Shown piece by piece: positions 26,979 through 53,030 of a DNA stretch of 61,034 bases (positions are counted from its first letter, which is position 1; every line of letters begins with the position of its first letter). The notes under the pieces were generated by a model, which was given only the letters and a program-made list of their open reading frames with translations, ran no database searches and had not been told where the DNA came from. Location: contig CAYGGG010000002.1 of NCBI GenBank assembly GCA_964349455.1, forward strand, positions 1 through 61,034, given 5' to 3'. Position numbers and translations under genes: made by a program. The DNA is from an uncultured Muribaculaceae bacterium. Its GTDB lineage: Bacteria; Bacillota_I; Bacilli_A; RF39; UBA660.

Positions 26979-26987
26979 GAGGTTTTG

Positions 26988-30326: not shown

Positions 30327-30337
30327 AGGAGGCTTTT

Positions 30338-33300
30338 ATGAAAAAATTTAGCAGAATTATATTAGGAGTTTTTGTTTTAACAATTGGGATATTGTTGTTT
30401 CAAGAAACAATTTTTGCTGGATGGCAGGGCTCAATTGGTGGTACAGGTGGAAATCAAGGAGGAAGTGGGACAACCGCTAATGTTTATATTACAAATAGTG
30501 GTGCACATGCAATGAGAGTGTATATGGTTAAACAAGTCGGCGGCAGTGTAACAGTTGTTTCTAATGTAAAAGATTTTCGAAAACAAGATGGGTGGCAGTA
30601 TAAGACGGTTTTAAATTATTCTACTTCAGGTAACGGCCTTGGGACGAGATTTGGCAGTAATTTGGTAAAAAACAATTCGGGATATAATGCCCACGTTGTT
30701 ACAAAATCTTCTCAGGAGGGAGTTCCGCTTCCCACCTTATATGTAGAGGGGGCAGGACAGGCAGTTCGTAATTTTTTCTTGGCGTTGAATCGTAATCAAA
30801 CTAATTGTAGTCCAAATTGCTTACATAAATTTTTAGTTGAAACACTGGGTGTTAATAGTGAATTGAAAGGTATTTTGGAAAAACAAGGAGATGTTAGTAA
30901 TTATTTTATTGTGGTTGAACCAGTTCATTATTTTTGGAAAAATCCAAGTGGTAATGCAATTGCCTTTTCTTCAACTGATGGTGCTAAATTTTATAAAGAT
31001 TTTGTAAGTGGCGGAATACATAATGTGCAATCGCGAATTTTTAATCATTCCCCGTTGACACTTGTCAATTTAAATTCGAAGCCTTTAAATGCATTATCGG
31101 CAGCTGGGACACCATTAAAACCATGGTGTAGCAATGCAGCTGTTTGTTATAGTAATCGAAGTCAGTATTTTTATACCTCGGCTCAAATGATGGGTAGTTC
31201 TGGATTGGGAATTGGTTATTTATGGGCGAAGGAAACTGATTTGGGTAAGGAATGCGATCCTAAGGATCCAAAAAATCCGTGTGAGGATGATGACGAAGAT
31301 ATTCCTAAAACTTGTGCTTCAATGATGTCAAACATTTCTGATTATAAAGCATATTGGGATTTTGTTAGATGGGGTTTGAATAAAACGGATAAGGATTATA
31401 AGATGAATTGTTGTAGTGATTTTAAAAATTATATTGAAAGGCAAAAAGCAACTAATCCTACTTCTCTAATTTTATCAGCACATCAAGTTGATTATGAGTT
31501 GTATTGTGAAAGTCCGACAACAACAGTCCCGCCACCAACACCAAAAGATCCGCAATGTGCGTATTCGGTTCTGGTTTCATGTCCAGAATGTACTGAGATT
31601 CAATCTGGTGCGATTAAGGATATTGATAATTGGGATTGTATTTTTTTAAGTGATCGTTCGCCAAATGTGCCTGTTCAATTTAGAAATCATTATATTCAAG
31701 CATCGATTGGTGATAATCGTTATTGTAAGGTATATTGTCGTGAAGAAATGGGCTATGTTTTTCCAGAGGAAACATTTACGGTTAAGGCAGGACTTCATTT
31801 TACAATGGGAAGTACTTCTGTTGATACACCATTTGGAATTCCAAACTGGGGGAATGCTGCTTTTCAAGGAACCGCAAATTGTATGCCAGATATAAAGAGA
31901 GATAAGAAAATAGAGCCTTTAGCTGGAATTGATCGAACTAAGACAGGTGATCATGATGATTTACATATTGACCACGTGAAATTTACACATGATTGGAAGG
32001 ATGTTAATATTCGTTTGGGGACGGCTTGGGATAAATGGCAAGTTGGTGTTTTACAAGATTGGACTAAGAATAATGCCCAATATGCCGGACGGGATTCATC
32101 ATGTGGATTGGTTTTTAATGATAGTGAGTCAAGAGCAGCAGGCTGTGTTGATGAAAATAAAATATATTCATGTAGTTATGGGAAACCGAAAGATGGCTCA
32201 TCCAATAATAGTCGAAAAACTATATTTGAATGTCGCCATGTAGTACCCGCTACCGCGCATTATACGTGTTCTTCAGGAACTTTCAATGGGGTCGATTGTG
32301 ATACACAATGCACAAGAATGATTGATTGTTATAATTCTGTCACTAAAAAATGGGAGAAGTGTCCTCAAAATTATAGTTGTTCTGTTGCGGCAACATTTTC
32401 TCATTACACTTGTGATGAACCACAATATGATAAACCATTACCAGGGGATTCTTCTCAATGTTATTATGATTTTACCTCAGATTCAACTAGATGGCAGTGT
32501 AACAGTACAAGCGGTGCATATTATCAAAGAGTGAGAACTCCTTCATATAATTATAATAATCCAAATATACGAGGAAATGAAAGTAGTGGGTCGTATAATT
32601 GGTGTACAATAAGGAGCGATGTTAATTATGATTGGACTAACGATCCGAATACAGCAAGTGGATTTACTCGTCGCTTTGTTTCAAATACTCAGGTGAGTAG
32701 TTTATCGTCTAATACAAATTTATATGATCCCGCTCCAAATACAGCAAGAAGACCGGCAACGAGACCATCTGTTAATTCGTTGCGAAATGCCTATGATGTA
32801 ATTTATCGTGAACGGGAAGGTTATTTGCAACAAATAAGAGCTTGTCAAAATTATGATTATAACTATAATCATTTAAATCCGCAAATGCGAATGGGGTATA
32901 ATGATTTTAAATATCCGTTACCGCCTGATGTTGATTATGCATTAGAATCAAAAATAACCGAAACTTCAGAAATTGATTATCTGGTAAAAGGACAATATGT
33001 CAGTAGTTCATCAGATGTGATTGATCGATTTTCGTGTAATCCACCAACTACACCAGCGACTACTACTAGTTGGCAAACTGTTGGGACGGCTGTTAAATGT
33101 CCAATTACAAAACAAGATTATCCAGATAATGATGCTTTCTTCTATACTAAAGATCGAGTTATTAATTATGAGTTAAATCAAAATATTCATCGTTTTGTTA
33201 TTAAACATAGTGAAAAAGGAAATTTTACTGATGATTCGGTTTCGGTTCACAGAAGACCTGCAACCGGAAATTATATTGACATTGGATATCCAAATTTACC

Positions 33301-33925
33301 GGTTCATTATTTTCAGGGAGACCATTATCCTGATACTAGTCAAGTATGGATTAGATTAGTCGATGTACCAAGCCCTAGTTTAGGTTCAAATAATAGATTT
33401 GACAAGTTTATTTTTGGGCAATATAAACCAGCAACCATTAATGCAAGAGAATGTATGCGTTATGAATGTGACTATAATATTACCTATCGGTTTATTCCGC
33501 CTGATGATGGTAATCCTAATCCGGGAGGTCCTAATCCAGGAGACCCAACAGGGGTTATTGATATATTAGTTAAATTTCGACCAATCGATTTAGGAGATCC
33601 TTTTCCAGGTCATTCAGGGACAGGGCGAACGCCAGGATGGAATTGGAATTCAGACAATGTTATTACGCAAGTTATTAGTAATAATCGAGGGGTAACGGAA
33701 GATAGACTTTATCGCGACCGAAATCCGATGTATACGATTGATTTAAGATTTAATGCAATTTCAGCAATTCGTTCATATAATAGGAATCGTGATTATAATG
33801 ATTTTACGCTTACTTGCCGAACCGGATTAACTGGTAATAGTCGGCATCGTGAATGTCGAAGTACATTTGTAAATCAGTTTGTAAAAAGAGATTCATGTTT
33901 AAGCACTTGGAACGGTTGTCATTGA
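30338..33925 (+). CDS. Giant Cys-rich secreted protein, paralog B (1195 aa), unknown family
   Basis: AGGAGG RBS and signal/anchor IILGVFVLTIGILLF. Blocks shared with paralog A include VEPVHY, AIAFSSTDGA, YCKVYCREEMGYV, FQGTANC, NIRGNESSGS, LQIRACQ, TKDRVINYELN, ECMRYECDYNI and IDILVKFRPIDL. Confidence 0.7.
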   Translation: MKKFSRIILGVFVLTIGILLFQETIFAGWQGSIGGTGGNQGGSGTTANVYITNSGAHAMRVYMVKQVGGSVTVVSNVKDFRKQDGWQYKTVLNYSTSGNGLGTRFGSNLVKNNSGYNAHVVTKSSQEGVPLPTLYVEGAGQAVRNFFLALNRNQTNCSPNCLHKFLVETLGVNSELKGILEKQGDVSNYFIVVEPVHYFWKNPSGNAIAFSSTDGAKFYKDFVSGGIHNVQSRIFNHSPLTLVNLNSKPLNALSAAGTPLKPWCSNAAVCYSNRSQYFYTSAQMMGSSGLGIGYLWAKETDLGKECDPKDPKNPCEDDDEDIPKTCASMMSNISDYKAYWDFVRWGLNKTDKDYKMNCCSDFKNYIERQKATNPTSLILSAHQVDYELYCESPTTTVPPPTPKDPQCAYSVLVSCPECTEIQSGAIKDIDNWDCIFLSDRSPNVPVQFRNHYIQASIGDNRYCKVYCREEMGYVFPEETFTVKAGLHFTMGSTSVDTPFGIPNWGNAAFQGTANCMPDIKRDKKIEPLAGIDRTKTGDHDDLHIDHVKFTHDWKDVNIRLGTAWDKWQVGVLQDWTKNNAQYAGRDSSCGLVFNDSESRAAGCVDENKIYSCSYGKPKDGSSNNSRKTIFECRHVVPATAHYTCSSGTFNGVDCDTQCTRMIDCYNSVTKKWEKCPQNYSCSVAATFSHYTCDEPQYDKPLPGDSSQCYYDFTSDSTRWQCNSTSGAYYQRVRTPSYNYNNPNIRGNESSGSYNWCTIRSDVNYDWTNDPNTASGFTRRFVSNTQVSSLSSNTNLYDPAPNTARRPATRPSVNSLRNAYDVIYREREGYLQQIRACQNYDYNYNHLNPQMRMGYNDFKYPLPPDVDYALESKITETSEIDYLVKGQYVSSSSDVIDRFSCNPPTTPATTTSWQTVGTAVKCPITKQDYPDNDAFFYTKDRVINYELNQNIHRFVIKHSEKGNFTDDSVSVHRRPATGNYIDIGYPNLPVHYFQGDHYPDTSQVWIRLVDVPSPSLGSNNRFDKFIFGQYKPATINARECMRYECDYNITYRFIPPDDGNPNPGGPNPGDPTGVIDILVKFRPIDLGDPFPGHSGTGRTPGWNWNSDNVITQVISNNRGVTEDRLYRDRNPMYTIDLRFNAISAIRSYNRNRDYNDFTLTCRTGLTGNSRHRECRSTFVNQFVKRDSCLSTWNGCH

Positions 33926-33945: not shown

Positions 33946-34359
33946 ATGAAAGAGTCGTTATGGGGGACATTTGTAATTATGTTTGGAATTACTGCTGTGT
34001 TTTTTGTCTTATTGTTTCAAAGAATTGTTACAACGAGTGAACATAATTATCATATATTGAAGGAGGCTACTGAGGGTGCGATGTACGATGCACTTGATTA
34101 TGCTGAATATCGTGCTTATGGAACAGTCCGAATCGATCGTGAAAAATTTGTTGAAAATTTTGTTCGCCGATTTGCTGAGAGCGCGTCATTAACTGATCGA
34201 TATTTTATTGAAATATATGATGTGTTCGAGGAACCACCAAAAGTAAGCATTCAAGTTTCCAGTGTTGAATCCGGAAACCCTGGAACGAATGAACGCTTTG
34301 AATTTAATATTGTGAATCGAATTGATGCAATATTAGAAACGATGTATGTTAATCCATAG
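33946..34359 (+). CDS. TadE/pseudopilin-like protein (N-terminal MKESLWG leader plus hydrophobic helix)
   Basis: MKESLWG-TFVIMFGITAVFFVLLF followed by a ~110-aa soluble domain. It shares the leader pattern with 38100, 38304 and 38774. Confidence 0.45.
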   Translation: MKESLWGTFVIMFGITAVFFVLLFQRIVTTSEHNYHILKEATEGAMYDALDYAEYRAYGTVRIDREKFVENFVRRFAESASLTDRYFIEIYDVFEEPPKVSIQVSSVESGNPGTNERFEFNIVNRIDAILETMYVNP

Positions 34360-34377
34360 TAAGAAAGGAATGAGAAA

Positions 34378-35247
34378 ATGAATGGTATAGTAAATGGTTT
34401 ACAAGGTTTTTTAAAAAACAAGAATATTGTTACAATTTTGGGCGTAATTGCAATTTTGGGTATTTTGTATTTTACTTATAATAATCAAATTGAGAAGCAG
34501 GTTCGTCCATATCGTAATATTCCGGTTGCAAGAGAGGCAATCCAGCCCGGGACAATGATCACTGATGAAATGATTGATTATGTTGATATATCACCAATTG
34601 TCTTTAATCATGGCCGTGTTGCTCGATTTTCAAACGAAGTTGTTGGGAAATATGCTGATTATAATACGGTAATTCCAGCAGGAAGCTTGTTTTATCTAGA
34701 TGTTTTAATTAGTGAAGAACAATTGCCTGATTCGGTATTTACCAAAGTTAAGGATGGCGATGTTGTAACAAGATTTGCGGTTACAACGGAAACAACATAT
34801 GGAAATTCAATTTTTCCGGGAAATAGAATTGATATTTATATGAAAGTAATTGTGCCTAGTACAAGAACAATAATGGTTGGAAAATTATTAGAAAATATTA
34901 CAATTATTGCCGTAAAAGATAATAGCGGTAAAGATGTATTTGTTAGTAGAGAAGATGAGTCACAATCAGCAATGTTAATTTTTGGATTAGACCCAATTTT
35001 ACATAATCTTTTGTTGAAGGCGAGTTATATGCGAGATTTCGAAGTGGAATTAATTCCGGTACCACATGGTGGAACAGTTGAGAATACTGGTGGAACGCAA
35101 ATAAAATCAGAAGCATTGAAATTGTTGATTGAAGCAAACTCTGAACCAAATGAAGAGTTATTTAGTGATCAAGATATTGTGGTTGACGATTTAATAATTG
35201 AAGATGAAAATATTGATTTAGAGGATTTAATAGACGGAGTTGAGTAA
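34378..35247 (+). CDS. CpaB/RcpC-like SAF-domain pilus assembly protein
   Basis: An N-terminal TM (IVTILGVIAILGILYF) is followed by the SAF-like IPVAREAIQPGTMITDEMI...VVGKYA...IPAGSLF. The C-terminal tail is acidic. Confidence 0.55.
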   Translation: MNGIVNGLQGFLKNKNIVTILGVIAILGILYFTYNNQIEKQVRPYRNIPVAREAIQPGTMITDEMIDYVDISPIVFNHGRVARFSNEVVGKYADYNTVIPAGSLFYLDVLISEEQLPDSVFTKVKDGDVVTRFAVTTETTYGNSIFPGNRIDIYMKVIVPSTRTIMVGKLLENITIIAVKDNSGKDVFVSREDESQSAMLIFGLDPILHNLLLKASYMRDFEVELIPVPHGGTVENTGGTQIKSEALKLLIEANSEPNEELFSDQDIVVDDLIIEDENIDLEDLIDGVE

Positions 35248-35249
35248 AA

Positions 35250-36347
35250 ATGAATGACAACATGTTTGCCCAAATTGATTTTGGCGCGTTAAAACCTTAT
35301 TTGGAAAGCGATGACATAACGGATATATCATATAGTAATGGTGGTCAGATATGGCTTAAAACACTTTCTAAAGGGATTTTTCGAGTTGAAAATCCAAGTA
35401 TTGATGATACTTTTATTGAAAAAGTCGCTTTCCAGTGTTCAAACGTGATGGGAAAGACCTTCAATATGGCTCATCCTTTTCTTGATGCAGAAGGAGCAGA
35501 GTTACGTTTAAACTTTGTTCATCGCTCAATTGCAACAAATGGTGTAGCGGTTGTTTTTAGAAAGACACCAGCTAAAATTAGATTGCAAAAAGATAAAATA
35601 TTAGAAGAACAATATATTACAATTGACATTCTTGATTTTTTAATAAAGTGTGTTGAAGGACATTGTAATATTATTGTTTGTGGTGAAACTGGTTCTGGTA
35701 AAACCGAACTTGTCAAGTATTTAGCGTCGCATACAAAAGAAAACGAAAAGATAATTACGATTGAGGATACTTTAGAATTACATTTAGATCGAATTTTTCC
35801 AATGCGCGATATTGTCGCAATGAAAACAAATAATATTGCTTCGTATACTGATGTGTTGGTTACTTGTATGCGCCAAAATCCAAGATGGATTTTATTATCA
35901 GAGGTTCGTAGTGCGGAAGCGGTAATGGCGGTTCGAAATTCAATTTCATCGGGTCATTATATTTTATCAACAATTCATGCCGAAAAAGCAGCTTCTATTC
36001 CAAACCGAATGTATAGTTTGCTTGAATCTAATCAAGATATTGAACAATTTTTAAAATCAATATATCGTTATATTCAATTAGGGGTTTATGTTCGTGGTTT
36101 TCAAGACAAAGAAACCAAAAAGTTTAGACGTGAGGTTGCTGAAGTAACCGAGTTTTATGTTACTGATGATAATGAAGCTAAATATAATATAATTTATAAA
36201 AAAATGGCAACCGGTAATGTTGTGCGAAGAAAACCAAGTAAGTATTTATTTGAATATCTTGAAATACAAGGTGTTAGTTTGGAAGAAGATGCGATTAAAC
36301 CATCGGGTGAAACCGAAAAAGAGGAAAAAGTTGAAGTTTTAATATAA
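35250..36347 (+). CDS. TadA/CpaF/VirB11-superfamily secretion ATPase (T2SSE)
   Basis: Walker A VCGETGSGKTE (~35681-35708), IITIEDTLEL, Walker B/Arg RQNPRWILLSEVR and His box ILSTIHA. Confidence 0.85.
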   Translation: MNDNMFAQIDFGALKPYLESDDITDISYSNGGQIWLKTLSKGIFRVENPSIDDTFIEKVAFQCSNVMGKTFNMAHPFLDAEGAELRLNFVHRSIATNGVAVVFRKTPAKIRLQKDKILEEQYITIDILDFLIKCVEGHCNIIVCGETGSGKTELVKYLASHTKENEKIITIEDTLELHLDRIFPMRDIVAMKTNNIASYTDVLVTCMRQNPRWILLSEVRSAEAVMAVRNSISSGHYILSTIHAEKAASIPNRMYSLLESNQDIEQFLKSIYRYIQLGVYVRGFQDKETKKFRREVAEVTEFYVTDDNEAKYNIIYKKMATGNVVRRKPSKYLFEYLEIQGVSLEEDAIKPSGETEKEEKVEVLI

Positions 36348-36359
36348 AGGAGGCGAAAT

Positions 36360-37265
36360 ATGGGAACATTAGCAGCATTTTTATTGATTAGTGTTTTATT
36401 TGTTTTTTTGGTAGCCTATCGAAAAAACACTGGCGATAGTGTTTACAAATATATTTCAGGACAGGTTGTTGGTGTGTATGAAAAATATGCCCCCTATTCT
36501 TTTCAATCAGTTAGAGAAAAAGTAAAAGGATTGGGTCAGGAATATTCATCAAGGCAGTATGCAATGCAGTTTTCTATTTTTGCAATTGCCGCGTTTGCAA
36601 TATCATATTTATATTTTTACAGCGTAATTACATCTTTAATTTATGCGTTGTTAGCAATTATGGTAATACCATATTTAACTTATTTAAGATGTAAGCGTAT
36701 TTATAGTGAGTTTTTGTTTGAACAAATTCAAGTATATACGACTAACGTTATTATGGAATTTGCCACAACTCAAGCGTTTGTTAAAGCACTAGAAGGGGTC
36801 TATGAATCAGGTGTTTTAGAAGACCCAGTTAAAGGTGATGTAAAGATAATGATTGACATGGCCTATGAAAGCGGAACGATTGAGGGAGCGCTTGATTATA
36901 TGAATAGTAGATATGATTATTTTGTTGTAAAAAATATGCATCAATTATTTTTACAAATTACAAATGAAGGTTCGAAAGATTCTGGGGATGCTTTAGAAAA
37001 TATGTCGTTAGATATTGATATGTTAGTCGAGAATGTTTATCGTGACCGAATGGATCGTTCGAGTTTTCACAAAAAGTTTTTACAATTTGGAATTATTTTA
37101 TATTTAATGGTAATGATGGTTCAATTTTTGTTAGGAATTGAGTCATACATTAAATTGTTAAATAGTGGCTGGGTGCAGCTGTTGATTCATGGTGTGGTAG
37201 CCATTAATACTTATTTTTTGTTGAATGGTGAAAAATATTATAATGAGAATGTAGGTGCAGAATAA
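36360..37265 (+). CDS. TadB-like inner-membrane platform protein (T2SSF-like)
   Basis: Topology is TM, cytoplasmic helical domain (...VKALEGVYESG...IEGALDYMNSRY...DSGDALENMSLDID...), then C-terminal TMs. It lies directly after the ATPase. Confidence 0.5.
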   Translation: MGTLAAFLLISVLFVFLVAYRKNTGDSVYKYISGQVVGVYEKYAPYSFQSVREKVKGLGQEYSSRQYAMQFSIFAIAAFAISYLYFYSVITSLIYALLAIMVIPYLTYLRCKRIYSEFLFEQIQVYTTNVIMEFATTQAFVKALEGVYESGVLEDPVKGDVKIMIDMAYESGTIEGALDYMNSRYDYFVVKNMHQLFLQITNEGSKDSGDALENMSLDIDMLVENVYRDRMDRSSFHKKFLQFGIILYLMVMMVQFLLGIESYIKLLNSGWVQLLIHGVVAINTYFLLNGEKYYNENVGAE

Positions 37266-38047
37266 TGGAATTTGTTATTATAGCAATAATTTTTGTTTAT
37301 ATTTTAGAAGTAAATAATCGTGTTAGTACAAGGAAATTTGTTAAAGAGGCAGAACCATATTTCCGGTTTATGATGGAAGATGATTATAAATTTTTACTGA
37401 CGGTTCGTTATGGGAATGATGTTATTGTTGATGACTTGTACGGAACAAGAGTTCGTAATGGGATAATAACAACCATTGCGCTGGCTTTTATTTTTGTATC
37501 GAGATTAGATTTATTGTATATTGCAATTTGTTTAGTTGCAGGATTCGTGATATTTAAACAACCTTATATGAAATTACAAAAATACTATCAAAAAAATCTT
37601 CATTCTATCAATTTAATGCTTCCTTATTATTTAAAAAGTTTAGAAATATTGATCCAGCATTATACGGTTCCAGTGGCATTATCAAAATCAATTTTAACAG
37701 CACCTGATATTTTTAAATCTGGTTTAGAGAAATTGGTTCATAAAATTGAAGCTGGTGATTCAACGGTTGACCCATATATGGATTTTGCTAAAGAATATCC
37801 TGTTCGTGATTCAATGCGAATGATGCGACTTTTATATCGTTTGGGGCTTGGTTCTCAAGAGAATAAGCATCAACAATTAATGATGTTTTCGCGAACTGTT
37901 TCGACATTACAAAATAAATCACGAGAGACTAAGTATAAAGATCGTTTGGAAATGATGGAAAAGAAAACAATGTTGATGTTGGGGTGTACCGGTGGTGGCA
38001 TTATGATGATAATGTTAATGGCAATTATGATGATGATGGAGTTATAG
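37265..38047 (+). CDS. TadC-like inner-membrane platform protein (T2SSF-like)
   Basis: ATAATG overlap with the preceding gene. Same TM/helical/TM architecture (LPYYLKSLEILIQHYTVPVALSKSI...). Confidence 0.5.
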   Translation: MEFVIIAIIFVYILEVNNRVSTRKFVKEAEPYFRFMMEDDYKFLLTVRYGNDVIVDDLYGTRVRNGIITTIALAFIFVSRLDLLYIAICLVAGFVIFKQPYMKLQKYYQKNLHSINLMLPYYLKSLEILIQHYTVPVALSKSILTAPDIFKSGLEKLVHKIEAGDSTVDPYMDFAKEYPVRDSMRMMRLLYRLGLGSQENKHQQLMMFSRTVSTLQNKSRETKYKDRLEMMEKKTMLMLGCTGGGIMMIMLMAIMMMMEL

Positions 38048-38048
38048 A

Positions 38049-38077
38049 TTGAATTTTAAATTTGCCTATGTTATAAT
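38049..38077 (+). promoter_or_regulatory. Near-consensus sigma-A promoter with an extended -10, in front of the pilin ORF
   Basis: TTGAAT (38049-38054), a 17-nt spacer, TGt then TATAAT (38072-38077). Confidence 0.65.
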
Positions 38078-38099
38078 TCTATAGAAAGGTGGTGAGATA

Positions 38100-38270
38100 G
38101 TGAAAGAAGCAGCAGGAGAAGCGAACTTAACAGTTGTAGCTATTATTTTAATTGGGGTGATTGCAGCAGTTGTTACACCGCTAATTACAAGAATGATGAA
38201 TACAACGAGAGAAAGAGGCGAATGCATGGATACTGGTGGTGTCTGGGTAAATGGCCGATGTCAGCGATAA
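38100..38270 (+). CDS. Flp/type IVc-like major pilin candidate, 56 aa (absent from the supplied ORF track)
   Basis: GTG start 7 nt after AGGTGG. It translates to MKEAAGEANLTVVAIILIGVIAAVVTPLITRMMNTTRERGECMDTGGVWVNGRCQR: a short polar leader, a ~22-aa hydrophobic helix and a C-terminal Cys-x11-Cys loop. It holds the flp position between tadC-like and tadE/F-like genes. Confidence 0.55.
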   Translation: MKEAAGEANLTVVAIILIGVIAAVVTPLITRMMNTTRERGECMDTGGVWVNGRCQR

Positions 38271-38303
38271 GATAACAATTAAAGAATAAATAGGAGGTGT
38301 TTG

Positions 38304-38771
38304 ATGCGCGAAGGTATTGGTAGTATTCAAATGTACAATATCATTATCTTGTTTTTCTTGATCGTGGTAGCATTTTTATTTGCAACAATTAGCTATCAAC
38401 GAGCGTTTAAAGTAAACACTTTAATTACAAGTAGTATTGAAAGATATGAAGGGTATAATGGACTTGCAATTCCAGTTATTGAACGAGATTTAAATACAAT
38501 TGCTTATCAGAGATTACGAGGGGGCGTGACACCAAATTGTCCAGCAAAAGATCCTTTGGTATTAGTGTCAGGTTCTAATTTATCTCATAAGTATTGTGTT
38601 TATGAAGGGGCTTTAGAAACAGTTACTTTTTCGGACGGCTTACAGGTTTCTTTTAGACAATATACAATTGTAACGTACGTTACATTTGACCTGCCCTTAA
38701 TAACTGATTTAATTGAAATTCCTGTCATTTCAAAAACAAATCGAATTGTCTGTTTTGAGGGCGGCTGTTAA
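38304..38771 (+). CDS. TadE/TadF-like pseudopilin
   Basis: AGGAGGTG RBS. MREGIGS-IQMYNIIILFFLIVVAFLF leader and helix, with conserved Cys residues. Confidence 0.45.
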   Translation: MREGIGSIQMYNIIILFFLIVVAFLFATISYQRAFKVNTLITSSIERYEGYNGLAIPVIERDLNTIAYQRLRGGVTPNCPAKDPLVLVSGSNLSHKYCVYEGALETVTFSDGLQVSFRQYTIVTYVTFDLPLITDLIEIPVISKTNRIVCFEGGC

Positions 38772-38773
38772 TT

Positions 38774-39229
38774 ATGAAAGAGTCAATTGGCAACACGATG
38801 GTTTTTACTTGGGTTATCATTTTTCTTTTTTTAATAATGCTTTTAATTATGGGGTCTTTAATGTACTCAAGAGCATTTAAAAATAGAAATGAAATAATAA
38901 CAATTATTGAAAAACATCGTGGATTTAATCTTCAGGCTAGAAATGAAATTGATGAGTTTTTAAGAATGGTTGGATATCGTCAAGCAAAAGATTTTCATAA
39001 TCGAGATGTTAATAATAGTTGTCAACCACCAAGTGGTTGGTCTAACGAGCCAGTACAAAGTGTATATTTGTATTGTGTTTATCGAAATAATAACGCCGAT
39101 TTATATCAGGTTGTTATTTTCTTGTATTTGGATATCCCGATTGTTGGTGAATTTATTTCTTTTCCAGTTCGTGGTGAAACAAGGGTATTTGTTAATTGGC
39201 GAAGCCAAAGTCTTGAGGTGATTAGATGA
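38774..39229 (+). CDS. TadE/TadF-like pseudopilin (paralog of the previous gene)
   Basis: MKESIGN-TMVFTWVIIFLFLIMLLIMG. It shares ...YSRAFK.N..I...IE...G... and YCVY with 38304-38771. Confidence 0.45.
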   Translation: MKESIGNTMVFTWVIIFLFLIMLLIMGSLMYSRAFKNRNEIITIIEKHRGFNLQARNEIDEFLRMVGYRQAKDFHNRDVNNSCQPPSGWSNEPVQSVYLYCVYRNNNADLYQVVIFLYLDIPIVGEFISFPVRGETRVFVNWRSQSLEVIR

Positions 39230-40239
39230 ATGTTATTATAACTAATAAAAATCAAAGTAGTATTCAAACTTTAAATATGGAAATAATTAAAGAAATGAAC
39301 GGTGAATTTTCAGCTGATGAAATTGTTGCTGCGTTTAAGAACTTTTTTTATCAAAGAATGATTTTAGATATTACGGCGTTAAAAGATTTTAAAGAATTAA
39401 GTAATTTGCAAAAATTATCAATTTCATTAGATATGGATAAGTTAATTTTATTTTTAGGAAATGTTGAAATTGGTTCTTCAAATGAATTTTTATCGAGTTT
39501 AATATCAATGGGAATATATAATTTTACCAAAAATGTTGATGGAATTATGTATTTGTATAATAATCCAAATTCATATCGCGATGTGGCACATTTTCATAAT
39601 TTGGATATTTTTAAAGAAGAAGTCCCAACAGCAACTCATTCAACAAAAACTTTAAAAGAATATGGGACACAAATTATTGGTATTGAAAATGTTACGGTTA
39701 ACTCCGGTGCAACGACATTAACATATTTGATGAAAAGGCAATTAGAAAGTAATTATTCAGTGATTGCGATTGAAATGAATAAAAGAGATTTCAGCTATTT
39801 CAATAATGAAAAAGAGATGTATTCATCGACTGATGATCATTTTTTAGGGTTATTAAGTAAGCATGCTGATAAAGATGTTATTTTAATTGATTTGAACGGA
39901 AGTAAGGTTGCAAAAGAACGATGTAATGATGTAATTTACTTGATTGAGCCATCAATTATTAAATTAAATAAGTTAATGGTTTTATATCGTTCGAAATTGC
40001 AAGATATTAGTAAGAAAAAAATTATTTTAAATCAAAGTATGTTAACTTCGAAAGATGTTTTAGATTTTGAATATGAGGCAAGATCAAAGGTGTTTTTTAA
40101 TATGCCACCACTTGACGAGCGGCAAAAAAACATTTTGGTTTTGAATATGTTTTTAAAAAAATTAGGATTTGATCGTCAATATACCGAAAATAGTGATAAA
40201 AAGAGTAAAATCCTTGGTATTTTTAATATTAATAATTGA
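39226..40239 (+). CDS. TadZ/CpaE-like protein (receiver-like N-domain plus degenerate ParA/MinD-like domain)
   Basis: ATGA overlap with the upstream gene. IIGIENVTVNSGATTLTYLM sits where the deviant Walker A should be, with no conserved Lys. DVILIDLNGS is a Walker B-like strand. Confidence 0.35.
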   Translation: MNVIITNKNQSSIQTLNMEIIKEMNGEFSADEIVAAFKNFFYQRMILDITALKDFKELSNLQKLSISLDMDKLILFLGNVEIGSSNEFLSSLISMGIYNFTKNVDGIMYLYNNPNSYRDVAHFHNLDIFKEEVPTATHSTKTLKEYGTQIIGIENVTVNSGATTLTYLMKRQLESNYSVIAIEMNKRDFSYFNNEKEMYSSTDDHFLGLLSKHADKDVILIDLNGSKVAKERCNDVIYLIEPSIIKLNKLMVLYRSKLQDISKKKIILNQSMLTSKDVLDFEYEARSKVFFNMPPLDERQKNILVLNMFLKKLGFDRQYTENSDKKSKILGIFNINN

Positions 40240-40282
40240 CATACATAGTATTGTATGATAAAGTAAATCTAAGGAGGAGATT

Positions 40283-40603
40283 ATGGAATTATACGTTTTA
40301 GCCACGGGACCATGCATGGGCATGCCAACTGTTTTGATTGATTTGTTAGGAATAGTTATTCAGGTGATAAAAATTGTTATTCCGATTGTTTTAGTTCTTT
40401 TCGGAATGCTTGATTTAGGGAAGGCTGTTTTTGAACAAAAAGAAGAAGATATAACAAAAGCTCAAAAAATGTTTGTTAAAAGACTAGTAGCAGCTATTTT
40501 GGTATTTTTAGTAGTTGTAATTGTTCAATTTGTAATCGGCGTTATTGCGAATGCAACAGGCGATTCAGAAGTGATTACATGCTTTGATCATATTTTTAAT
40601 TAA
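40283..40603 (+). CDS. Small two-TM hairpin protein, VirB2/TrbC-like pilin-like candidate
   Basis: AGGAGG RBS. Two long hydrophobic helices are separated by the charged loop LGKAVFEQKEEDITKAQKMFVKR. Confidence 0.4.
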   Translation: MELYVLATGPCMGMPTVLIDLLGIVIQVIKIVIPIVLVLFGMLDLGKAVFEQKEEDITKAQKMFVKRLVAAILVFLVVVIVQFVIGVIANATGDSEVITCFDHIFN

Positions 40604-40626
40604 GAAACTTTGGTTTCTTTTTTTTT
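40602..40626 (+). terminator. Rho-independent terminator ending operon 1
   Basis: AAGAAAC/GTTTCTT 7-bp stem, a 4-nt loop and a T run. Confidence 0.7.
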
Positions 40627-40667
40627 GTAATAATATATTATTTTCTATTTATTATTTAGAAATACTA

Positions 40668-40676
40668 TGATATAAT
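40668..40676 (+). promoter_or_regulatory. Extended -10 promoter (TGaTATAAT) for the T4SS operon
   Basis: TG at 40668-40669 and TATAAT at 40671-40676, 24 nt upstream of ATG 40700. The -35 is weak (TTTATT). Confidence 0.5.
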
Positions 40677-40699
40677 AAATATATGTTAGAGGTGAATAT

Positions 40700-41818
40700 A
40701 TGAAATTAAAACGTCATTTTTTAGTTTTTTGTTTAATTGTAATTTCTTTTTTTATTTTTAATCCAATTGAGGTAAATGCTGAGATAAATGGCTGTGTTTA
40801 TGAAGTTAAGGGTAGCGGGAGTGAAAAATTAATTATTAATGCAAGTAAATCCGTTTTTAAACTATCTGCTGACGGAAAACTCGAGGAAAAATCTTTAGGG
40901 ACGGTTAATATTGCCGGTACCGAAAAGGCAGATGGGAATTTTGCAGCACCATTTAAAAGTTGTCCAGGTAACTTATATAAATATGAATTAGGAGCTAGTG
41001 GTGGCGCAAGAGGCGATGCAAAATCGGTGTATTCTGTTTCATTATGTGAAATAGAAACAGTAAATGATATTAATGATGATTTTAGAAAAAGATGTGATTT
41101 TCTTTTTGATTATATATACATTAAACCTGTGATAGGTGGTACAGAAAAAGAGGAAATGACACTTCGCGAATCAATTGAAGAATATGGTGAAATGGCAGGA
41201 GCACTTTTTAAATATGATTCTCTAAAAAAACAATATCAAATAAAAGATTTGTATAAGGCAATTTCAATTACTGAAGCACAAGAAGATGCTGCTAAGGAAA
41301 ATATGGAGGCAGCGGCGACAGCTTTTGCAAGTTGTGTGAAAAAGAACCATCCTTATGTGAGTAATTGTAATGAAAATGAGTATGATGAGTATGTAAGTTG
41401 TGTTATGGCAGCGGTTGAAGCAAAAGGGGATGAATTTAAATGTAGTGCTGAAAAAAATCAATACGAGGAAGCTTCAAAAGAACTTACTACTGCTCGAGAA
41501 TTGAAATTAATTGAGTGGAATTTAAAGGAATTATCATGCGAGGAAATATTGGGGACAGATTTAATTGAGTTTTTAAAGAGGCTTTTCTTTTATATAATGA
41601 TTATTGGGATTGGTATTACTGTTGTAATGACAATGTTAGATTATGGAAAAGCAATTGCTAGTTCCGATGAAGAAATTTATAAAAAAGCGAATAAGAAAAT
41701 GGGGCGAAGAATAATAATATTGATTATTCTAATACTATTGCCAGTGTTAATTGAATATATTCTTATAATATTTGGTGGGGCAATAGGAATTACAAATGCT
41801 CATCCTTTCTGCGAGTAG
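40700..41818 (+). CDS. Secreted protein with a signal peptide and a C-terminal two-TM VirB2-like hairpin module
   Basis: MKLKRHFLVFCLIVISFFIFNPIEVNA signal sequence. The C-terminal ...VMTMLDYGKAIASSDEEIYKKANKKMGRRIIILIILILL... parallels the 106-aa protein. Confidence 0.5.
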   Translation: MKLKRHFLVFCLIVISFFIFNPIEVNAEINGCVYEVKGSGSEKLIINASKSVFKLSADGKLEEKSLGTVNIAGTEKADGNFAAPFKSCPGNLYKYELGASGGARGDAKSVYSVSLCEIETVNDINDDFRKRCDFLFDYIYIKPVIGGTEKEEMTLRESIEEYGEMAGALFKYDSLKKQYQIKDLYKAISITEAQEDAAKENMEAAATAFASCVKKNHPYVSNCNENEYDEYVSCVMAAVEAKGDEFKCSAEKNQYEEASKELTTARELKLIEWNLKELSCEEILGTDLIEFLKRLFFYIMIIGIGITVVMTMLDYGKAIASSDEEIYKKANKKMGRRIIILIILILLPVLIEYILIIFGGAIGITNAHPFCE

Positions 41819-41826
41819 GTGAAGAA

Positions 41827-43845
41827 ATGATAGTTGGTTTAGTTAATAGTTTTATGAGTATCTCTTCGGGAATTTGGGGTTTTGTATTAGAAACTACGGC
41901 AACAGGGGAAACAACTGGCCAGGCTAATATTTTTTTGTCAATGCTACGAATATTTTTTGCAGCTGTTGACCGAATAATCATTAGTCTTATTAATCAGGTT
42001 TTTGATTTGTTAATGGCAATTGCCGATACTAATATTTTTGGAGACGAAATAATTAGATTGGTTGGGACAAGGATATATGCTTTAGTAGCAATTTTTATGT
42101 TGTTTAAAATTGCGATTACGATGATTAAATATTTAGCGGAACCTGATTCGTTTGACGATCAAAAATCAGGCTTCGGGAAATTAATTTCTAAGGTAATGAT
42201 TGCGTTGTTTATGCTTGCTTTTGTACCAACTATTTTTGATTGGGCGTTTGATATACAAACCTTTGTTATAAAAAATAAGACTTTGGAAAGAATTGTTTTT
42301 GGAACAACTGATACTTTGGGTTCAAATCAATCAAGATCGCTTTCTTTTTCTTTATTTAGTGCTTTTTTTGTCCCTGATCCAAGAGTAGTCGGTTCTGATT
42401 GTGATGGAGCATACTTTGCAAATTCTATTCCAGAATCATGTCTCAGCGCAATAGAGGCAGCGAATGAAGCAGAAGGTGCTTCAGTGAACCAAAATTTCAG
42501 AGTCGCTTATGAAGATAGTGATGCGGAAATATTATTATCCCCGGTACTGATTGATGCAAAAAATGAAACAAATGACTATATATTTCGGTATGATTGGCTG
42601 ATCTCCACAATTGTTGGAGGAATTGCCTTGTTAATATTGGTATCATTTTGTTTTGATATAGCAATTCGTTCTGTTAAACTAGGTTTTTTGCAATTAATTG
42701 CACCAATTCCAATTTTATCCTCAATAGATCCAAGCAGTGAAATTTTTAAAAAATGGTATGAGAGTTGTTTTAAAACATATTTGGATTTATTTATTAGGTT
42801 GATTGCAGTATTTTTTGCTGTTTTTGTAATTGCAGTTGTAAAATCAGGAATTAATTCGGAAGGAATTAAAACATATTCTGGGAATGATAGCGTGGATAAC
42901 TCATTAGTGATGATTGCAATAATATTAGGGTCATTACTTTTTGCAAAAGAACTACCAAAATTAATTTCAGATATAACAGGGCTAAAATTGGATGGTGGCG
43001 GATTCTCTTTAAATCCACTAGATCGATTAAAGCAAGTACCAATTGCAGGAACAGTGGCAGCTGGTGCAATTGGTGGGGCTGGTGGTGCACTTGGAGGTTT
43101 TGTTGGAGGCAGAGAATCGGGGATGGGCCTTTGGAAAGGAGTCCACGGTTTAACGGGCGGAATTGGTGCGGGAATTAGTGCTGTACCAATGAAAGGCACA
43201 AAAGAGGGCGAAAAAGCACAATCTGTGTTTGGTGCTGCAAGAGGAAAGGCTTATAAGGATGCTACTGGTAATGAAATGGCAATATTAAGTAGTGAAAAAA
43301 TGATGGCTGGTTTATTTCCTGAATATACTAAAGGGGTAGTGGATAAGAGAACTGAGAAGCCAAAACAGATGTTAAAACAGATAAAACAGGATCAAGCTTT
43401 TATCGAAAATGAATTGGCCGTAAAAAAAGATGATTACATTGAATATAGTAAAACAGCGCCAGCTGCAACAGCGCCAGCCAGTGAGCGAGAAGCATGGGAA
43501 ACAGGTAGACAAGATCGTGCTAAAGTAATTGCTGATTTGCAAAAACGGTCTGGATTCTTGGAAAAACAAGCAAAACCGTTTGAAAATCAAATAGAGCAAG
43601 TTAAAAAAGCGATGAAAGTGGATGAATCAACAACAAAAACAATGGCTCAAGCTGAGATTGAAGCAAATAAGCAAAGAGAAAAATTAAAGACAGATTATAA
43701 TTATAAGCCACCAGAACCAGATGATACGAGTACACCACCGAGCACACCGCCAGTAGCACCACCGAGTACACCACCGAGTACACCACCTCCAGGTGGTGGT
43801 TCGGATGATACCGATGATACATTGGGGCGTGGAACATATTTTTAA
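41827..43845 (+). CDS. VirB6-like polytopic T4SS channel protein with a Gly-rich segment and a Pro/Ser/Thr-rich C-terminal tail
   Basis: There are at least 6 hydrophobic helices in the first ~400 aa. It sits just upstream of the VirB3/VirB4-like genes, as with ConG/TcpH-type proteins. Assignment rests on architecture and position only. Confidence 0.5.
   Translation: MIVGLVNSFMSISSGIWGFVLETTATGETTGQANIFLSMLRIFFAAVDRIIISLINQVFDLLMAIADTNIFGDEIIRLVGTRIYALVAIFMLFKIAITMIKYLAEPDSFDDQKSGFGKLISKVMIALFMLAFVPTIFDWAFDIQTFVIKNKTLERIVFGTTDTLGSNQSRSLSFSLFSAFFVPDPRVVGSDCDGAYFANSIPESCLSAIEAANEAEGASVNQNFRVAYEDSDAEILLSPVLIDAKNETNDYIFRYDWLISTIVGGIALLILVSFCFDIAIRSVKLGFLQLIAPIPILSSIDPSSEIFKKWYESCFKTYLDLFIRLIAVFFAVFVIAVVKSGINSEGIKTYSGNDSVDNSLVMIAIILGSLLFAKELPKLISDITGLKLDGGGFSLNPLDRLKQVPIAGTVAAGAIGGAGGALGGFVGGRESGMGLWKGVHGLTGGIGAGISAVPMKGTKEGEKAQSVFGAARGKAYKDATGNEMAILSSEKMMAGLFPEYTKGVVDKRTEKPKQMLKQIKQDQAFIENELAVKKDDYIEYSKTAPAATAPASEREAWETGRQDRAKVIADLQKRSGFLEKQAKPFENQIEQVKKAMKVDESTTKTMAQAEIEANKQREKLKTDYNYKPPEPDDTSTPPSTPPVAPPSTPPSTPPPGGGSDDTDDTLGRGTYF
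43728..43790 (+). repeat. Short in-frame tandem repeat encoding (S/V)(T/A)PP units
   Basis: GAGTACACCACCG occurs at 43728 and 43764, and a 12-nt version lacking the final G at 43776. The encoded peptide is TSTPPSTPPVAPPSTPPSTPPP. Confidence 0.7.
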
Positions 43846-43863
43846 AAAAAGGGGTGATTTAAA

Positions 43864-44181
43864 TTGAATGAAGGATTTTTAATTCCGGCAAATTCAAAAA
43901 AATCGATATTAATTTTTGGTTTATTTAAGACATTTGACTTGATCTTGTTTAGCATAGGATTAGGGTTAACATTTTTGTTGTTGATAACCGTTCCGATGCA
44001 AGATCTAACATGGTCGGTAATTGCAATAGCACCAGGAATGATTTGTGGTTTTCTGGTATTGCCATTACCTAATTACTATAATGTTCGAACATTTATTATG
44101 AGTGCATGGCGCTTTTATACAATAAGGCAGAAATTTATATGGAAAGGTTGGTGTGTAATTAATGAGCAAGGCAGAGAGTAG
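43864..44181 (+). CDS. VirB3/PrgI-like small two-TM protein
   Basis: TTG start after AGGGGTGA. It is 105 aa with two TM helices and overlaps the start of the VirB4 N-domain ORF. Confidence 0.45.
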   Translation: MNEGFLIPANSKKSILIFGLFKTFDLILFSIGLGLTFLLLITVPMQDLTWSVIAIAPGMICGFLVLPLPNYYNVRTFIMSAWRFYTIRQKFIWKGWCVINEQGRE

Positions 44182-44710
44182 AAGTAAGTATACAAATGAT
44201 TTAATTCCAGTTAAAAATATTACAAATGGAATGATTTATTTGGACAATGGTGAAAAAGTTGCTGGGGTTAAGATAATGCCCAGAAATATTTTCATTTTGG
44301 ATCAAGATTCGCAATATGGAATAATTGTTAATCTAAAAAATGTTTATAATTTAATTGATTATGAATTTTGGGTGATAGTTGCTGATCGTCCGGTAGATAT
44401 TAATGTATATCTATCACAATTGCAATTATTATATAATAATACAAGTGACCCAGTTAAGCGAAAATTAATTGGTGAGGATATTAGTAAGGGGAATTTTTTT
44501 ATGAGTAGTGATGTGGTTGATACTGAATATTTCTTGTTGTTTAAAGAAAGGGACGATGAATTAATTCAAAAAAGAATTAGAACATTAATTACTAGTTTGG
44601 CAAATGCAGGTTTAACTTCATATCAAACAACCAACGATGATTTAAGAATGGTTTTGGATAATTTCTTAAATGCAGGGAGTACGACAGGATTTGGGACGGT
44701 GATTGCATAA
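44162..44710 (+). CDS. VirB4-family ATPase, N-terminal domain as a separate ORF
   Basis: LIPVKNITNGMIYLDNGEKVAGVKIMPRNIFILDQDSQ...FWVIVADRPVDINVYL resembles the N-terminal region of Gram-positive VirB4 proteins (Tn916 Orf16/PrgJ/ConE type). Confidence 0.55.
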   Translation: MSKAESRSKYTNDLIPVKNITNGMIYLDNGEKVAGVKIMPRNIFILDQDSQYGIIVNLKNVYNLIDYEFWVIVADRPVDINVYLSQLQLLYNNTSDPVKRKLIGEDISKGNFFMSSDVVDTEYFLLFKERDDELIQKRIRTLITSLANAGLTSYQTTNDDLRMVLDNFLNAGSTTGFGTVIA

Positions 44711-46494: not shown

Positions 46495-46512
46495 TAGGCA
46501 GGCGGTGATAAA

Positions 46513-49302: not shown

Positions 49303-49314
49303 GGACGGTGAAAT

Positions 49315-50016: not shown

Positions 50017-50028
50017 AGGAATGATATA

Positions 50029-50733: not shown

Positions 50734-50742
50734 GAGGGTTCT

Positions 50743-52980: not shown

Positions 52981-52999
52981 TGCTTTTAAGCACTTTTTT
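52979..52999 (+). terminator. Terminator ending the island
   Basis: AGTGCTT/AAGCACT inverted repeat overlapping the stop codon, followed by T6. Confidence 0.6.
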
Positions 53000-53001
53000 G
53001 T

Positions 53002-53030
53002 TTGAATTTTTTCTTTTTAAATGCTATACT
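53002..53030 (+). promoter_or_regulatory. Sigma-A promoter of rmuC
   Basis: TTGAAT (53002-53007), a 17-nt spacer, TGc then TATACT (53025-53030). Confidence 0.6.

Follow-up and report, generated by a model that had tools for sequence, protein, structure and literature searches.

A conserved 56-residue candidate major pilin encoded behind its own promoter in a type IV secretion gene cluster of uncultured Bacilli

Results

A small conserved gene at positions 38100 to 38270

We analyzed a 61,034-nucleotide (nt) stretch of DNA, hereafter the window, from an uncultured bacterium deposited as Muribaculaceae and placed by GTDB in Bacilli_A (RF39, UBA660; assembly GCA_964349455.1, contig CAYGGG010000002.1, positions 1 to 61,034 of the forward strand). 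An earlier note, made from the DNA letters and a list of open reading frames (ORFs), had pointed to an unannotated 56-codon ORF starting with GTG at 38100, 7 nt after AGGTGG, and had suggested that it encodes a divergent pilin transcribed from its own promoter. Its coordinates and translation, (M)KEAAGEANLTVVAIILIGVIAAVVTPLITRMMNTTRERGECMDTGGVWVNGRCQR, 56 amino acids (aa), were confirmed. The ORF lies within a long co-oriented cluster, downstream of a secretion ATPase gene and two membrane-protein genes and upstream of a type IV secretion system (T4SS) module (Table 1). It enters the ORF list only with a length threshold below 60 aa, which is probably the reason why it was missing from the original ORF track; some public annotations of metagenome-assembled genomes (MAGs) carry it as "hypothetical protein."

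Homologs of the protein are abundant. A word-indexed search returned at least 857 clusters at the 90% identity level, matching at 63 to 100% identity, and 357 clusters at 50% identity, nearly all matched from the first residue, came from an exhaustive hidden Markov model (HMM) search that used the alignment of the small protein. Among the matches listed, this exhaustive profile search recovered the same family only, with no bridge to Flp or other pilins. In a scan of one genome per species, relatives of the gene were found in about 270 GTDB species, in each case within this cluster. The carriers are all uncultured Bacilli ("Candidatus Coprosoma," "Firmicutes bacterium CAG:822," and MAGs labelled Mollicutes or Tenericutes) from gut, rumen and digesters, and complete contigs with the gene measure 1.37 to 1.54 Mb.

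A strict-motif search over 88 sequences gave 81 copies, and statistics were calculated on the 75 unique proteins. All 81 copies were intact ORFs sharing a common start at the M-K-E-A codon (76 ATG, 5 GTG). For codons 2 to 20, the proportions of synonymous (pS) and nonsynonymous (pN) differences were 0.57 and 0.055, respectively, giving a pN/pS of 0.096; this ratio was near 0.5 for codons 21 to 40 and 41 to 50. Up to four synonymous codons were used at invariant residues. Because 81 of 81 copies are intact with the same start and pN/pS is about 0.10 at near-saturated synonymous change, the small ORF is a genuine conserved gene under purifying selection. Poor conservation, with frameshifts or stops, had been named in the earlier note as grounds for abandoning its proposal, and the intact copies show the opposite. 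The gene thus represents an abundant family that is unnamed in current domain libraries and hidden by length thresholds.

An invariant N-terminal helix is followed by a variable, cysteine-stapled head

The strongest constraint falls on the N terminus, where M1, K2, E3, A4, G6, E7, A8, N9 and T11 are invariant (MKEAxGEAN(L/M)T). Most of the hydrophobic helix is invariant as well (I15 to I18, A23), plus P27, and position 19 is Gly in 68 of the 75 proteins and Ala in the others. In the window protein, a putative leader (residues 1 to 6, MKEAAG) precedes the helix (residues 10 to 30 approximately, with G19 and P27), and the head spans residues 41 to 56 with Cys42 and Cys54. Invariant positions in the head are C42, G46, G47, W49 and C54. 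Lengths in the family range from 56 to 87 aa, the C terminus varying from 14 to about 45 residues. In one protein of 145 aa (P0270), the Cys-rich head is duplicated in tandem, so that two CC…GG.W…C units follow a single N-terminal helix.

The number of cysteines was always even: 2, 4 or 6 in 12, 61 and 2 unique proteins, respectively, and forms with "CC" at positions 41 and 42 have one additional Cys in the extension. These even counts argue for extracellular disulfides and against metal binding. A zinc-binding cytoplasmic Cys cluster was rejected, since 12 of the 75 proteins have two Cys only and the counts step from 2 to 4 to 6.

AlphaFold2, run with the family alignment, predicted one helix (residues 2 to 44) and a beta-hairpin (residues 48 to 55), with a mean predicted local distance difference test (pLDDT) score of 83.5. 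In its dimensions, the protein thus corresponds to a short prepilin in which one long hydrophobic helix is followed by a minimal head. Its N terminus is also laid out like a class III signal peptide, that is, a short hydrophilic leader ending in Gly (MKEA[AS]G), then E-A-N-[LM]-T and a hydrophobic stretch of about 20 residues. At the level of sequence, a constrained N-terminal helix joined to a fast-evolving, length-variable and apparently disulfide-stapled exposed end is the classic signature of a major pilin.

The small gene has a private promoter conserved across species

The small gene is preceded by an extended −10 promoter and a Shine-Dalgarno sequence (Table 1), and transcription is predicted to start at about 38084 to 38085. 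This promoter had been described as the best in the island. From the window sequence alone, that was overstated: the bare motif matches 10 of 12 positions plus the TG, two intragenic sites score higher (11 of 12), and the 16-kb region contains 93 promoter-like sites versus 81 ± 8 in shuffled sequences. By itself, the promoter match is unremarkable for DNA of 30% G+C.

What sets the promoter apart is its conservation across species. In an alignment-free count, TGnTATA[AC]T was present 10 to 60 nt upstream of the start in 73 of 78 distinct loci, compared to a same-strand background of 0.012 per 50 nt. A gene-by-gene control found the extended −10 motif in 70 of 75 loci for the small gene, in 0/58 to 0/67 loci for the ATPase, 301-aa, 260-aa and 337-aa genes and both downstream paralogs, and in 2 to 3 of 58 loci for the two genes at the head of the filament-like module. 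The −35 is the weaker part of the small-gene promoter and varies in relatives (TTGATA, TTGAAA, TAGTCA, TAGAAA). Essentially all related upstream regions carry a Shine-Dalgarno sequence of the form (A/G)GGTGGTGA or AGGTGATA.

Furthermore, a terminator-like GC-rich hairpin with a T-run directly follows the stop codon of the small gene in 25 of 75 loci, versus 4 of 72 in the upstream control gap. These loci include L001, L017, L029, L041, L052 and 20 others, one example being GCTTGCTTTAGAGCAAGT-TTTTCTT. No hairpin follows the small gene in the window itself, where the gap measures 30 nt. A private promoter, often joined by a leaky terminator, within a long co-directional cluster would be expected for a subunit that has to be made in excess, and it is the strongest new support for the pilin idea.

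A second TG-extended promoter-like site (TTGACA-17-TAAAGT, 40236 to 40264) precedes the 106-aa VirB2-like gene. It was rejected as a conserved promoter, the extended −10 being found in 2 of 67 relatives only.

Two downstream paralogs carry a similar leader

The two ORFs that follow the small gene are paralogs of each other (hhalign E=1e-46). In both, a leader is followed by a hydrophobic helix and a conserved SY-x-KAFKVN motif, which can be written SYxxAFKVN for the first paralog. The leader of the first paralog reads M-[RK]-[EQ]-[GSA]-[IVL]-G in 65 of 66 members; that of the second reads M-[KR]-E-[AS]-[IVM]-[G/A/S/N]. Residues 1 to 26 of the small protein align in register with the N terminus of the second paralog (hhalign probability 71%, E=4e-5). 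The same register was obtained with the first paralog, not significantly (7.5%). Neither paralog has a match to TadE or to a pilin family, and PDB and Pfam profile searches gave nothing significant for them. The same type of leader is thus found on nearby candidate minor pilins, and its presence on one small and two larger proteins has the look, as judged from sequence, of a major-plus-minor pilin set.

Upstream, a secretion ATPase is followed by two membrane proteins

Table 1. Features at and around the small gene (window coordinates)
Feature	Coordinates	Strand	Remarks
DUF5411 protein	33946–34359	+	DUF5411 1.3e-50
CpaB/RcpC/SAF-like protein	34378–35247	+	RcpC 1.3e-3, SAF 1.4e-3, TIGR03177 CpaB 1e-6; sub-threshold
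T2SSE-family secretion ATPase, CpaF/TadA-VirB11-FlaI group, candidate filament motor	35250–36347	+	PF00437
Polytopic membrane protein, 301 aa, candidate TadB/TadC-type platform	36360–37265	+	Assigned from position after the ATPase
Polytopic membrane protein, 260 aa, candidate TadB/TadC-type platform	37265–38047	+	Assigned from position after the ATPase
−35-like hexamer TTGAAT	38049–38054	+	Starts 2 nt past the stop of the 260-aa gene
Extended −10, TGtTATAAT	38069–38077	+	TG 38069–38070, TATAAT 38072–38077; 17-nt spacer from TTGAAT
Shine-Dalgarno sequence AGGTGGTGA	38087–38095	+	AGGTGG 38087–38092, 7-nt spacer to GTG
56-aa pilin-like coding sequence	38100–38270	+	GTG start, TAA 38268–38270; from sequence and translation
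First leader-bearing paralog, 155 aa, candidate minor pilin	38304–38771	+	ATG 38304; N terminus MREGIG-SIQMYNIIILFF
Second leader-bearing paralog, 151 aa, candidate minor pilin	38774–39229	+	N terminus MKESIG-NTMVFTWVIIFLF
Conserved 337-aa protein, at the position of a possible TadZ-like accessory	39226–40239	+	Present in 64/64 loci
106-aa VirB2-like membrane protein, T4SS module	module 40283–52980	+	Weak T4SS_pilin Pfam signal
VirB6/TrbL-like protein	41827–43845	+	T4SS module
105-aa protein with two transmembrane segments	within 40283–52980	+	T4SS module
TraC-like protein, 182 aa	44162–44710	+	T4SS module
VirB4-like ATPase	44710–46494	+	T4SS module
M23+SLT cell-wall hydrolase	46513–49302	+	T4SS module
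VirD4-type coupling protein	50743–52980	+	T4SS module

Denise et al. (2019) recognize type IV filament systems by an ATPase, an inner-membrane platform and a major pilin. The locus has an assembly ATPase of the T2SSE/PilB family, present in 61 of 62 eligible loci and matching PF00437 with an E value of 3.5e-27 (95.5 bits versus a cut-off of 24.9). Its best PDB matches were GspE (2oap), CpaF (8rkd), FlaI and VirB11, all between 1e-15 and 1e-17, and its NCBIfam matches were VirB11 (1.6e-30) and TadA-family TIGR03819 (3e-27), both under the cut-offs.

The two polytopic proteins that follow the ATPase were not detected as paralogs of each other by hhalign. A deep search with the 260-aa protein found close, unannotated relatives only. 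Its AlphaFold2 model had a pLDDT of 66, and the top two Foldseek matches, both non-significant, were cytoplasmic domains of the GspF family: 5nbg (probability 0.87, E=0.88) and 2vmb (0.72). At its C terminus, the 260-aa protein has a poly-Met tail (…MAIMMMMEL), for which ATGATGATG repeats at window positions 38020 to 38047 code; the tail is conserved, with the consensus …SMMMMM in relatives. Downstream of the paralogs, the 337-aa protein matched neither ParA/MinD nor any other family in Pfam, NCBIfam or the PDB. TadB, TadC, TadZ and TadE/F were all dropped as memberships, with nothing significant in PDB and Pfam profile searches, and are used here as positional analogies only.

The order of genes around the small gene was not invariable. 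In three loci (L042, L057, L059), the small gene and the paralogs are not directly preceded by the 260-aa gene, and the same holds for three others (L062, L074, L078), which have an inserted gene. In L081, the small gene and the paralogs lie two unrelated genes apart. The rearranged loci keep the promoter motif of the small gene.

The module is joined to a T4SS cluster on the chromosome

The T4SS genes are kept together with the small gene (the 106-aa gene, p106, in 58/58 loci, the VirB6-like gene in 43/44 and the TraC-like gene in 41/42, with VirB4 downstream in L001 to L007), and wherever a locus was long enough to tell, the filament-like and T4SS modules were essentially always conserved together. 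The nearest named relatives of this T4SS are proteins of Mollicutes integrative and conjugative elements (ICEs), namely, the Mbov_0396 and Mbov_0397 families; the VirB6-like protein matches Mbov_0396 (5e-11) and MMCAP2_0566 (6e-10). The 182-aa protein matches the N-terminal part of the Mbov_0397-type VirB4 (2e-12), as if VirB4 were split between 44162–44710 and 44710–46494. T4SS_pilin Pfam signals were found in the 106-aa protein here (weak) and in 300-aa proteins of L001 to L004.

The whole cluster (24624 to 52980, about 28 kb) is co-oriented, and its order is conserved across many species between differing housekeeping genes. Besides the filament-like and T4SS modules, it encodes a membrane protein, a secreted protein of 226 aa and two giant Cys-rich secreted proteins. 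The two giant proteins (1113 and 1195 aa, 26985 to 33925) had no Pfam or NCBIfam match and are candidate adhesins or fibre-associated proteins; relatives have a single protein of about 940 aa at this place. A terminator-like hairpin, AGTGCTTTTAAGCACT followed by TTTTTT, at 52975 to 53010 after the coupling-protein gene probably marks the 3' end of the cluster transcription unit.

The flanks of the cluster are HemN/HD and RmuC here and, upstream, adh_short or ScpB elsewhere. No relaxase, integrase, att-like direct repeats or adjacent tRNA was found at the cluster and its ends, and megablast of 34000 to 42000 against PLSDB plasmids gave no match. The window is chromosomal, with PolC, MiaA and QueA on one side and RmuC, RNase R, SmpB and transfer-messenger RNA (tmRNA) on the other. 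The tmRNA gene (58089 to 58464, tag peptide GKNILSSVFGSQPSYGVAYA) lies just downstream of smpB (57617 to 58069), an ordinary arrangement that confirms the chromosomal context. The cluster may encode an organelle fixed in the chromosome and not be an ICE. On the same contig, no more than 10 kb before the window start, we also found genes of a type I restriction-modification system (HsdR/HsdM/HsdS-like) along with a DUF3800 gene (L089, 1772 to 6812).

Discussion

The 56-aa protein as a candidate major pilin

Taken together, these data make it likely that the product of 38100 to 38270 is the major structural subunit from which a divergent Tad/Epd-like type IV filament is built. Our inferred model extends to the formation of a filament, the cleavage of the leader and its position, the identity of the platform and the connection to T4SS function. 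In it, the gene would be transcribed from its own strong extended −10 promoter within the long co-oriented cluster, and the leaky terminator found after it in many relatives would help to keep the subunit in excess over the machinery. The 56-aa product would insert in the membrane via its helix of about 20 residues, with the Cys-stapled head outside the cell, and the M-K-E-A-A-G leader would probably be cut off by a prepilin-type peptidase encoded elsewhere in the genome. The T2SSE ATPase and the two polytopic proteins would then extract the subunits from the membrane and polymerize them, placing the invariant N-terminal helices in the filament core and exposing the variable, disulfide-bonded hairpin. 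The two leader-bearing downstream paralogs would probably be minor (priming or tip) subunits. Since the module is fused to a monoderm T4SS cluster, the fibre would most plausibly make or stabilize cell-cell contact for the T4SS.

Several results weigh against this reading. Flp_Fap (PF04964), one of the HMMs that the earlier note had proposed to search with, matched neither the window protein at E<=0.1 nor any of 28 family members at E<=10, and N_methyl and TadE were without a match even at E<=10. Similarly, hhalign of the family profile against Caulobacter PilA (an authentic Flp, its sequence verified as PDB 8u1k) gave a probability of 2.2%. The G/xxxxEY motif is missing: the residues after G6 are E-A-N-L/M-T-V, which puts Glu at +1 if cleavage occurs after G6, Thr at +5 in 75 of 75 and Val at +6 in 74 of 75 unique proteins. 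The leader carries K2 and E3 and is not net-positive. Gly is not constant at position 6 of the second paralog (G/A/S/N in 27/22/12/6 members), which makes the cleavage site uncertain; since position 6 is variable and position 4 is always A/G/S in all three proteins, cleavage after residue 4, 5 or 6 is possible. The search for a Peptidase_A24 catalytic motif or domain was negative across the window, 87 related loci (±10 kb) and the 10 kb beyond each window edge. As for the machinery, the ATPase is not separable by score from VirB11-type T4SS ATPases, T2SSF was matched at E>=0.07 only, by 4 of 21 members of the 260-aa family and 0 of 21 of the 301-aa family, and profile searches returned no PDB sequence matches for either membrane protein. 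Foldseek of the 56-aa model against the PDB also gave no match, an uninformative outcome for a single helix.

Type IVa pilins carry a helix-breaking pair, G14 and P22, eight residues apart, and many archaeal pilins lack Glu+5. The sole PDB profile match of the small protein was the alpha1 helix of the type IV pilin PilE1 (8pfb, E=0.016, below significance), with P27 on P22, and weak matches to archaeal Pilin_N were seen in 2 of 28 members. With Gly and Pro eight residues apart and a six-residue leader, the predicted helix looks at least as type IVa/archaeal-like as Flp-like. No Pfam or NCBIfam model reached its threshold for the small protein. LrgB, with sub-threshold Pfam matches in 25 of 28 members, was rejected as transmembrane-helix similarity, the matches covering the helix only; they account for unexpected source names like "effector of murein hydrolase." As far as its sequence goes, the small protein is therefore no demonstrable member of Flp or of any named pilin family, and the resemblance is architectural.

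Set against the earlier note, the pilin-like architecture is borne out, with an invariant Gly at the end of the short leader, a helix of about 20 residues and a small head, and the even Cys counts agree with its suggestion that the head cysteines may form a disulfide. It was also right that the protein has no canonical Flp motif. Its kinship with Flp/type IVc pilins holds for the architecture but not for the family, given that no Flp match was obtained and the helix is at least as type IVa/archaeal-like. The note had further placed the gene where flp sits, between tadC-like and tadE/F-like genes. In classical proteobacterial tad/cpa loci flp/pilA comes first, so that the claim is wrong for those. 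The order does correspond to that of monoderm Tad loci (PMC13091076), but the two labels lack sequence support: the T2SSF scores and the non-significant GspF matches do not sustain "tadC-like," and "tadE/F-like" has no backing in Pfam or the PDB. As to its proposal of a divergent pilin transcribed from a promoter of its own, both the gene and the conservation of the promoter are confirmed, and the pilin function is what we infer.

Other readings of the small protein

The main rival is that the small protein is a non-polymerizing single-pass membrane component (assembly, anchoring or regulatory) of the ATPase/platform or of the T4SS channel. Its strict co-conservation with membrane machinery genes would fit this, the invariant N terminus could be an intramembrane protein-protein interface, and the ATPase may be VirB11-like; the lack of significant similarity to any pilin family and the lack of a nearby prepilin peptidase over the range searched point the same way. 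Such a component would, however, hardly call for over-stoichiometric production, to which the private promoter, conserved only for the small gene, and the frequent terminator point. Moreover, the hypervariable sequence and length of the head, its tandem duplication in P0270 and the even Cys counts suggest an exposed surface instead of a fixed contact inside a complex, and the leader module is common to two larger paralogs, as in major-plus-minor pilin sets. We therefore consider this reading unlikely.

A second alternative, which we judge improbable, is a secreted or membrane-tethered Cys-rich peptide (bacteriocin-, pheromone- or effector-like), with the N terminus as export signal and the C terminus as the active part. 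A conserved N terminus before a variable Cys-rich C terminus also fits peptide precursors, an own promoter and terminator would suit them, and there were sub-threshold weak matches to defensin-like/myticin families and FeoB-associated Cys-rich membrane proteins. However, the hydrophobic segment is about 20 residues long with conserved Gly/Pro and no cleavage motif of the AxA or double-Gly type, and the cluster has no modification enzymes, ABC exporter or immunity gene. In addition, the same N-terminal module heads two neighbours of about 150 aa, and the gene is fixed between the ATPase/membrane set and the paralogs in about 270 species.

Even less probable is that the small protein is the conjugative VirB2/TraA-type pilin of the adjacent T4SS instead of a type IV filament subunit. 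VirB2-family pilins are two-helix hairpins, whereas a single helix is predicted for the small protein, which has no PF18895 match. A complete monoderm T4SS module does adjoin the gene, and Patescibacterial T4SS loci have VirB2-like pilin arrays (PMC12857230). A marginal NCBIfam match to the F-pilin TraA (TIGR02758, E=0.043) was also obtained, but at 14 bits it is far under the cut-off of 76.6. The T4SS_pilin signal belongs to other cluster genes (the 106-aa protein and the 300-aa proteins of L001 to L004), and the small gene lies inside the module of ATPase, platform and leader-bearing paralogs, upstream of the T4SS genes. Finally, a chance non-coding ORF in an intergenic spacer, as its 56-aa length, GTG start and AT-rich surroundings with common promoter-like motifs might suggest, is excluded by the 81 intact copies with a common start, the purifying selection on the N-terminal half (pN/pS 0.10 with synonymous change near saturation) and the hundreds of homologs.

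Implications

If the small protein is a pilin, it represents a new sequence class of type IV filament subunit, marked by Glu at +1, by the lack of both Glu+5 and EY, and by a mini-head stapled by a disulfide. Searches keyed to G/xxxxEY or Glu+5 would miss such a class, and the rules for finding pilins would have to be widened. Additional interest comes from the filament module being built into a T4SS cluster that is conserved across hundreds of uncultured small-genome Bacilli. It is conceivable, although we would not yet bet on it, that the small gene founds an undescribed pilin family whose fibre is integral to a chimeric type IV filament-T4SS organelle, chromosomally fixed in hundreds of species of small-genome gut Bacilli. 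A conserved pilus-plus-T4SS unit would bear on cell contact and DNA exchange by reduced-genome gut Bacilli, and if the chimeric organelle exists, a retractile or adhesive pilus would serve monoderm Bacillota in engaging partner cells for DNA or protein exchange by a T4SS. In the literature on RF39, pili and T4SSs, we found no earlier description of the small-gene locus, and a search on pilin processing by archaeal EppA or through pyroglutamate yielded nothing of use here.

Comparison with known systems

Two contiguous platform genes and a very short pilin are regarded as hallmarks of Tad/Epd-like systems (PMC6668835), and in monoderm Tad loci, as in Bifidobacterium, tadV lies outside the cluster (PMC13091076). 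As in Flp/Tad systems, the candidate prepilin of our locus is very short (56 to 85 aa) and consists of a brief leader, a single long hydrophobic helix and a tiny head; its gene comes after those for the ATPase and two membrane proteins, ahead of two larger proteins whose N termini are similar; and a peptidase gene would lie outside the cluster (PMC13091076; PMC6668835). Our locus differs from such systems in that there is no Flp_Fap match, no G/xxxxEY (G-EANLTV instead) and next to no hhalign similarity to 8u1k, in the conserved disulfide-type Cys of the head, in neighbours that give no TadB/C, TadE/F or TadZ signals and in the fused T4SS.

With type IVa and archaeal pilins (PilE1 8pfb, methanogen Epd), the small protein shares a six-residue leader ending in Gly, the G19/P27 pair eight residues apart and a C-terminal disulfide loop, here predicted; like many archaeal pilins, it has no Glu+5. 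Unlike them, it lacks the N_methyl motif, Phe+1 and Glu+5, its head has only 15 to 40 residues, and all scores are sub-significant.

In gut Clostridia, operons of DUF5411, CpaF and PilC/GspF have been predicted to be related to secretion or pili (Miller et al. 2022, PMC9523054). DUF5411 and a CpaF-type ATPase are likewise found in one operon here. However, the platform is recognizable as PilC/GspF in the clostridial operons but not here, and neither T4SS linkage nor the present pilin-like family is reported for those operons (PMC9523054).

Type IV filaments encoded with VirB4/VirD4-type genes are known from the Gram-negative elements R64/IncI (the PilS/PilV thin pilus), TP114 and PAPI-1, where they promote or are required for mating-pair formation (PMC12857230; PMC9045228). 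Similarly, our locus encodes a putative type IV filament module together with transfer genes. Those are diderm type IVb pili with recognizable PilS-type pilins, secretins and peptidases, whereas our locus belongs to monoderm Bacillota, encodes a new family and has no relaxase or integrase that we could find.

Monoderm T4SSs are described in reviews as having no pilin homologs and using adhesins instead (PMC4027160; PMC12857230), and Gram-positive conjugation systems as encoding no pili (PMC12857230); a chimeric organelle, if it exists, would break this rule of adhesins in place of pili in Gram-positive T4SSs. It might also have a parallel in the essential T4SS/type IV pilus (T4P) pair of the epibiotic Patescibacteria. 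In Southlakia epibionticum, a T4SS locus with a VirB2-like pilin array and a separate T4P are both essential for the lifestyle (PMC12857230). Like our organism, this is a reduced-genome monoderm with a chromosomal T4SS associated with candidate pilus subunits. There, however, the array consists of VirB2-like hairpins and the T4P is encoded apart, whereas the module described here, with its single-helix candidate subunit, lies inside the T4SS cluster.

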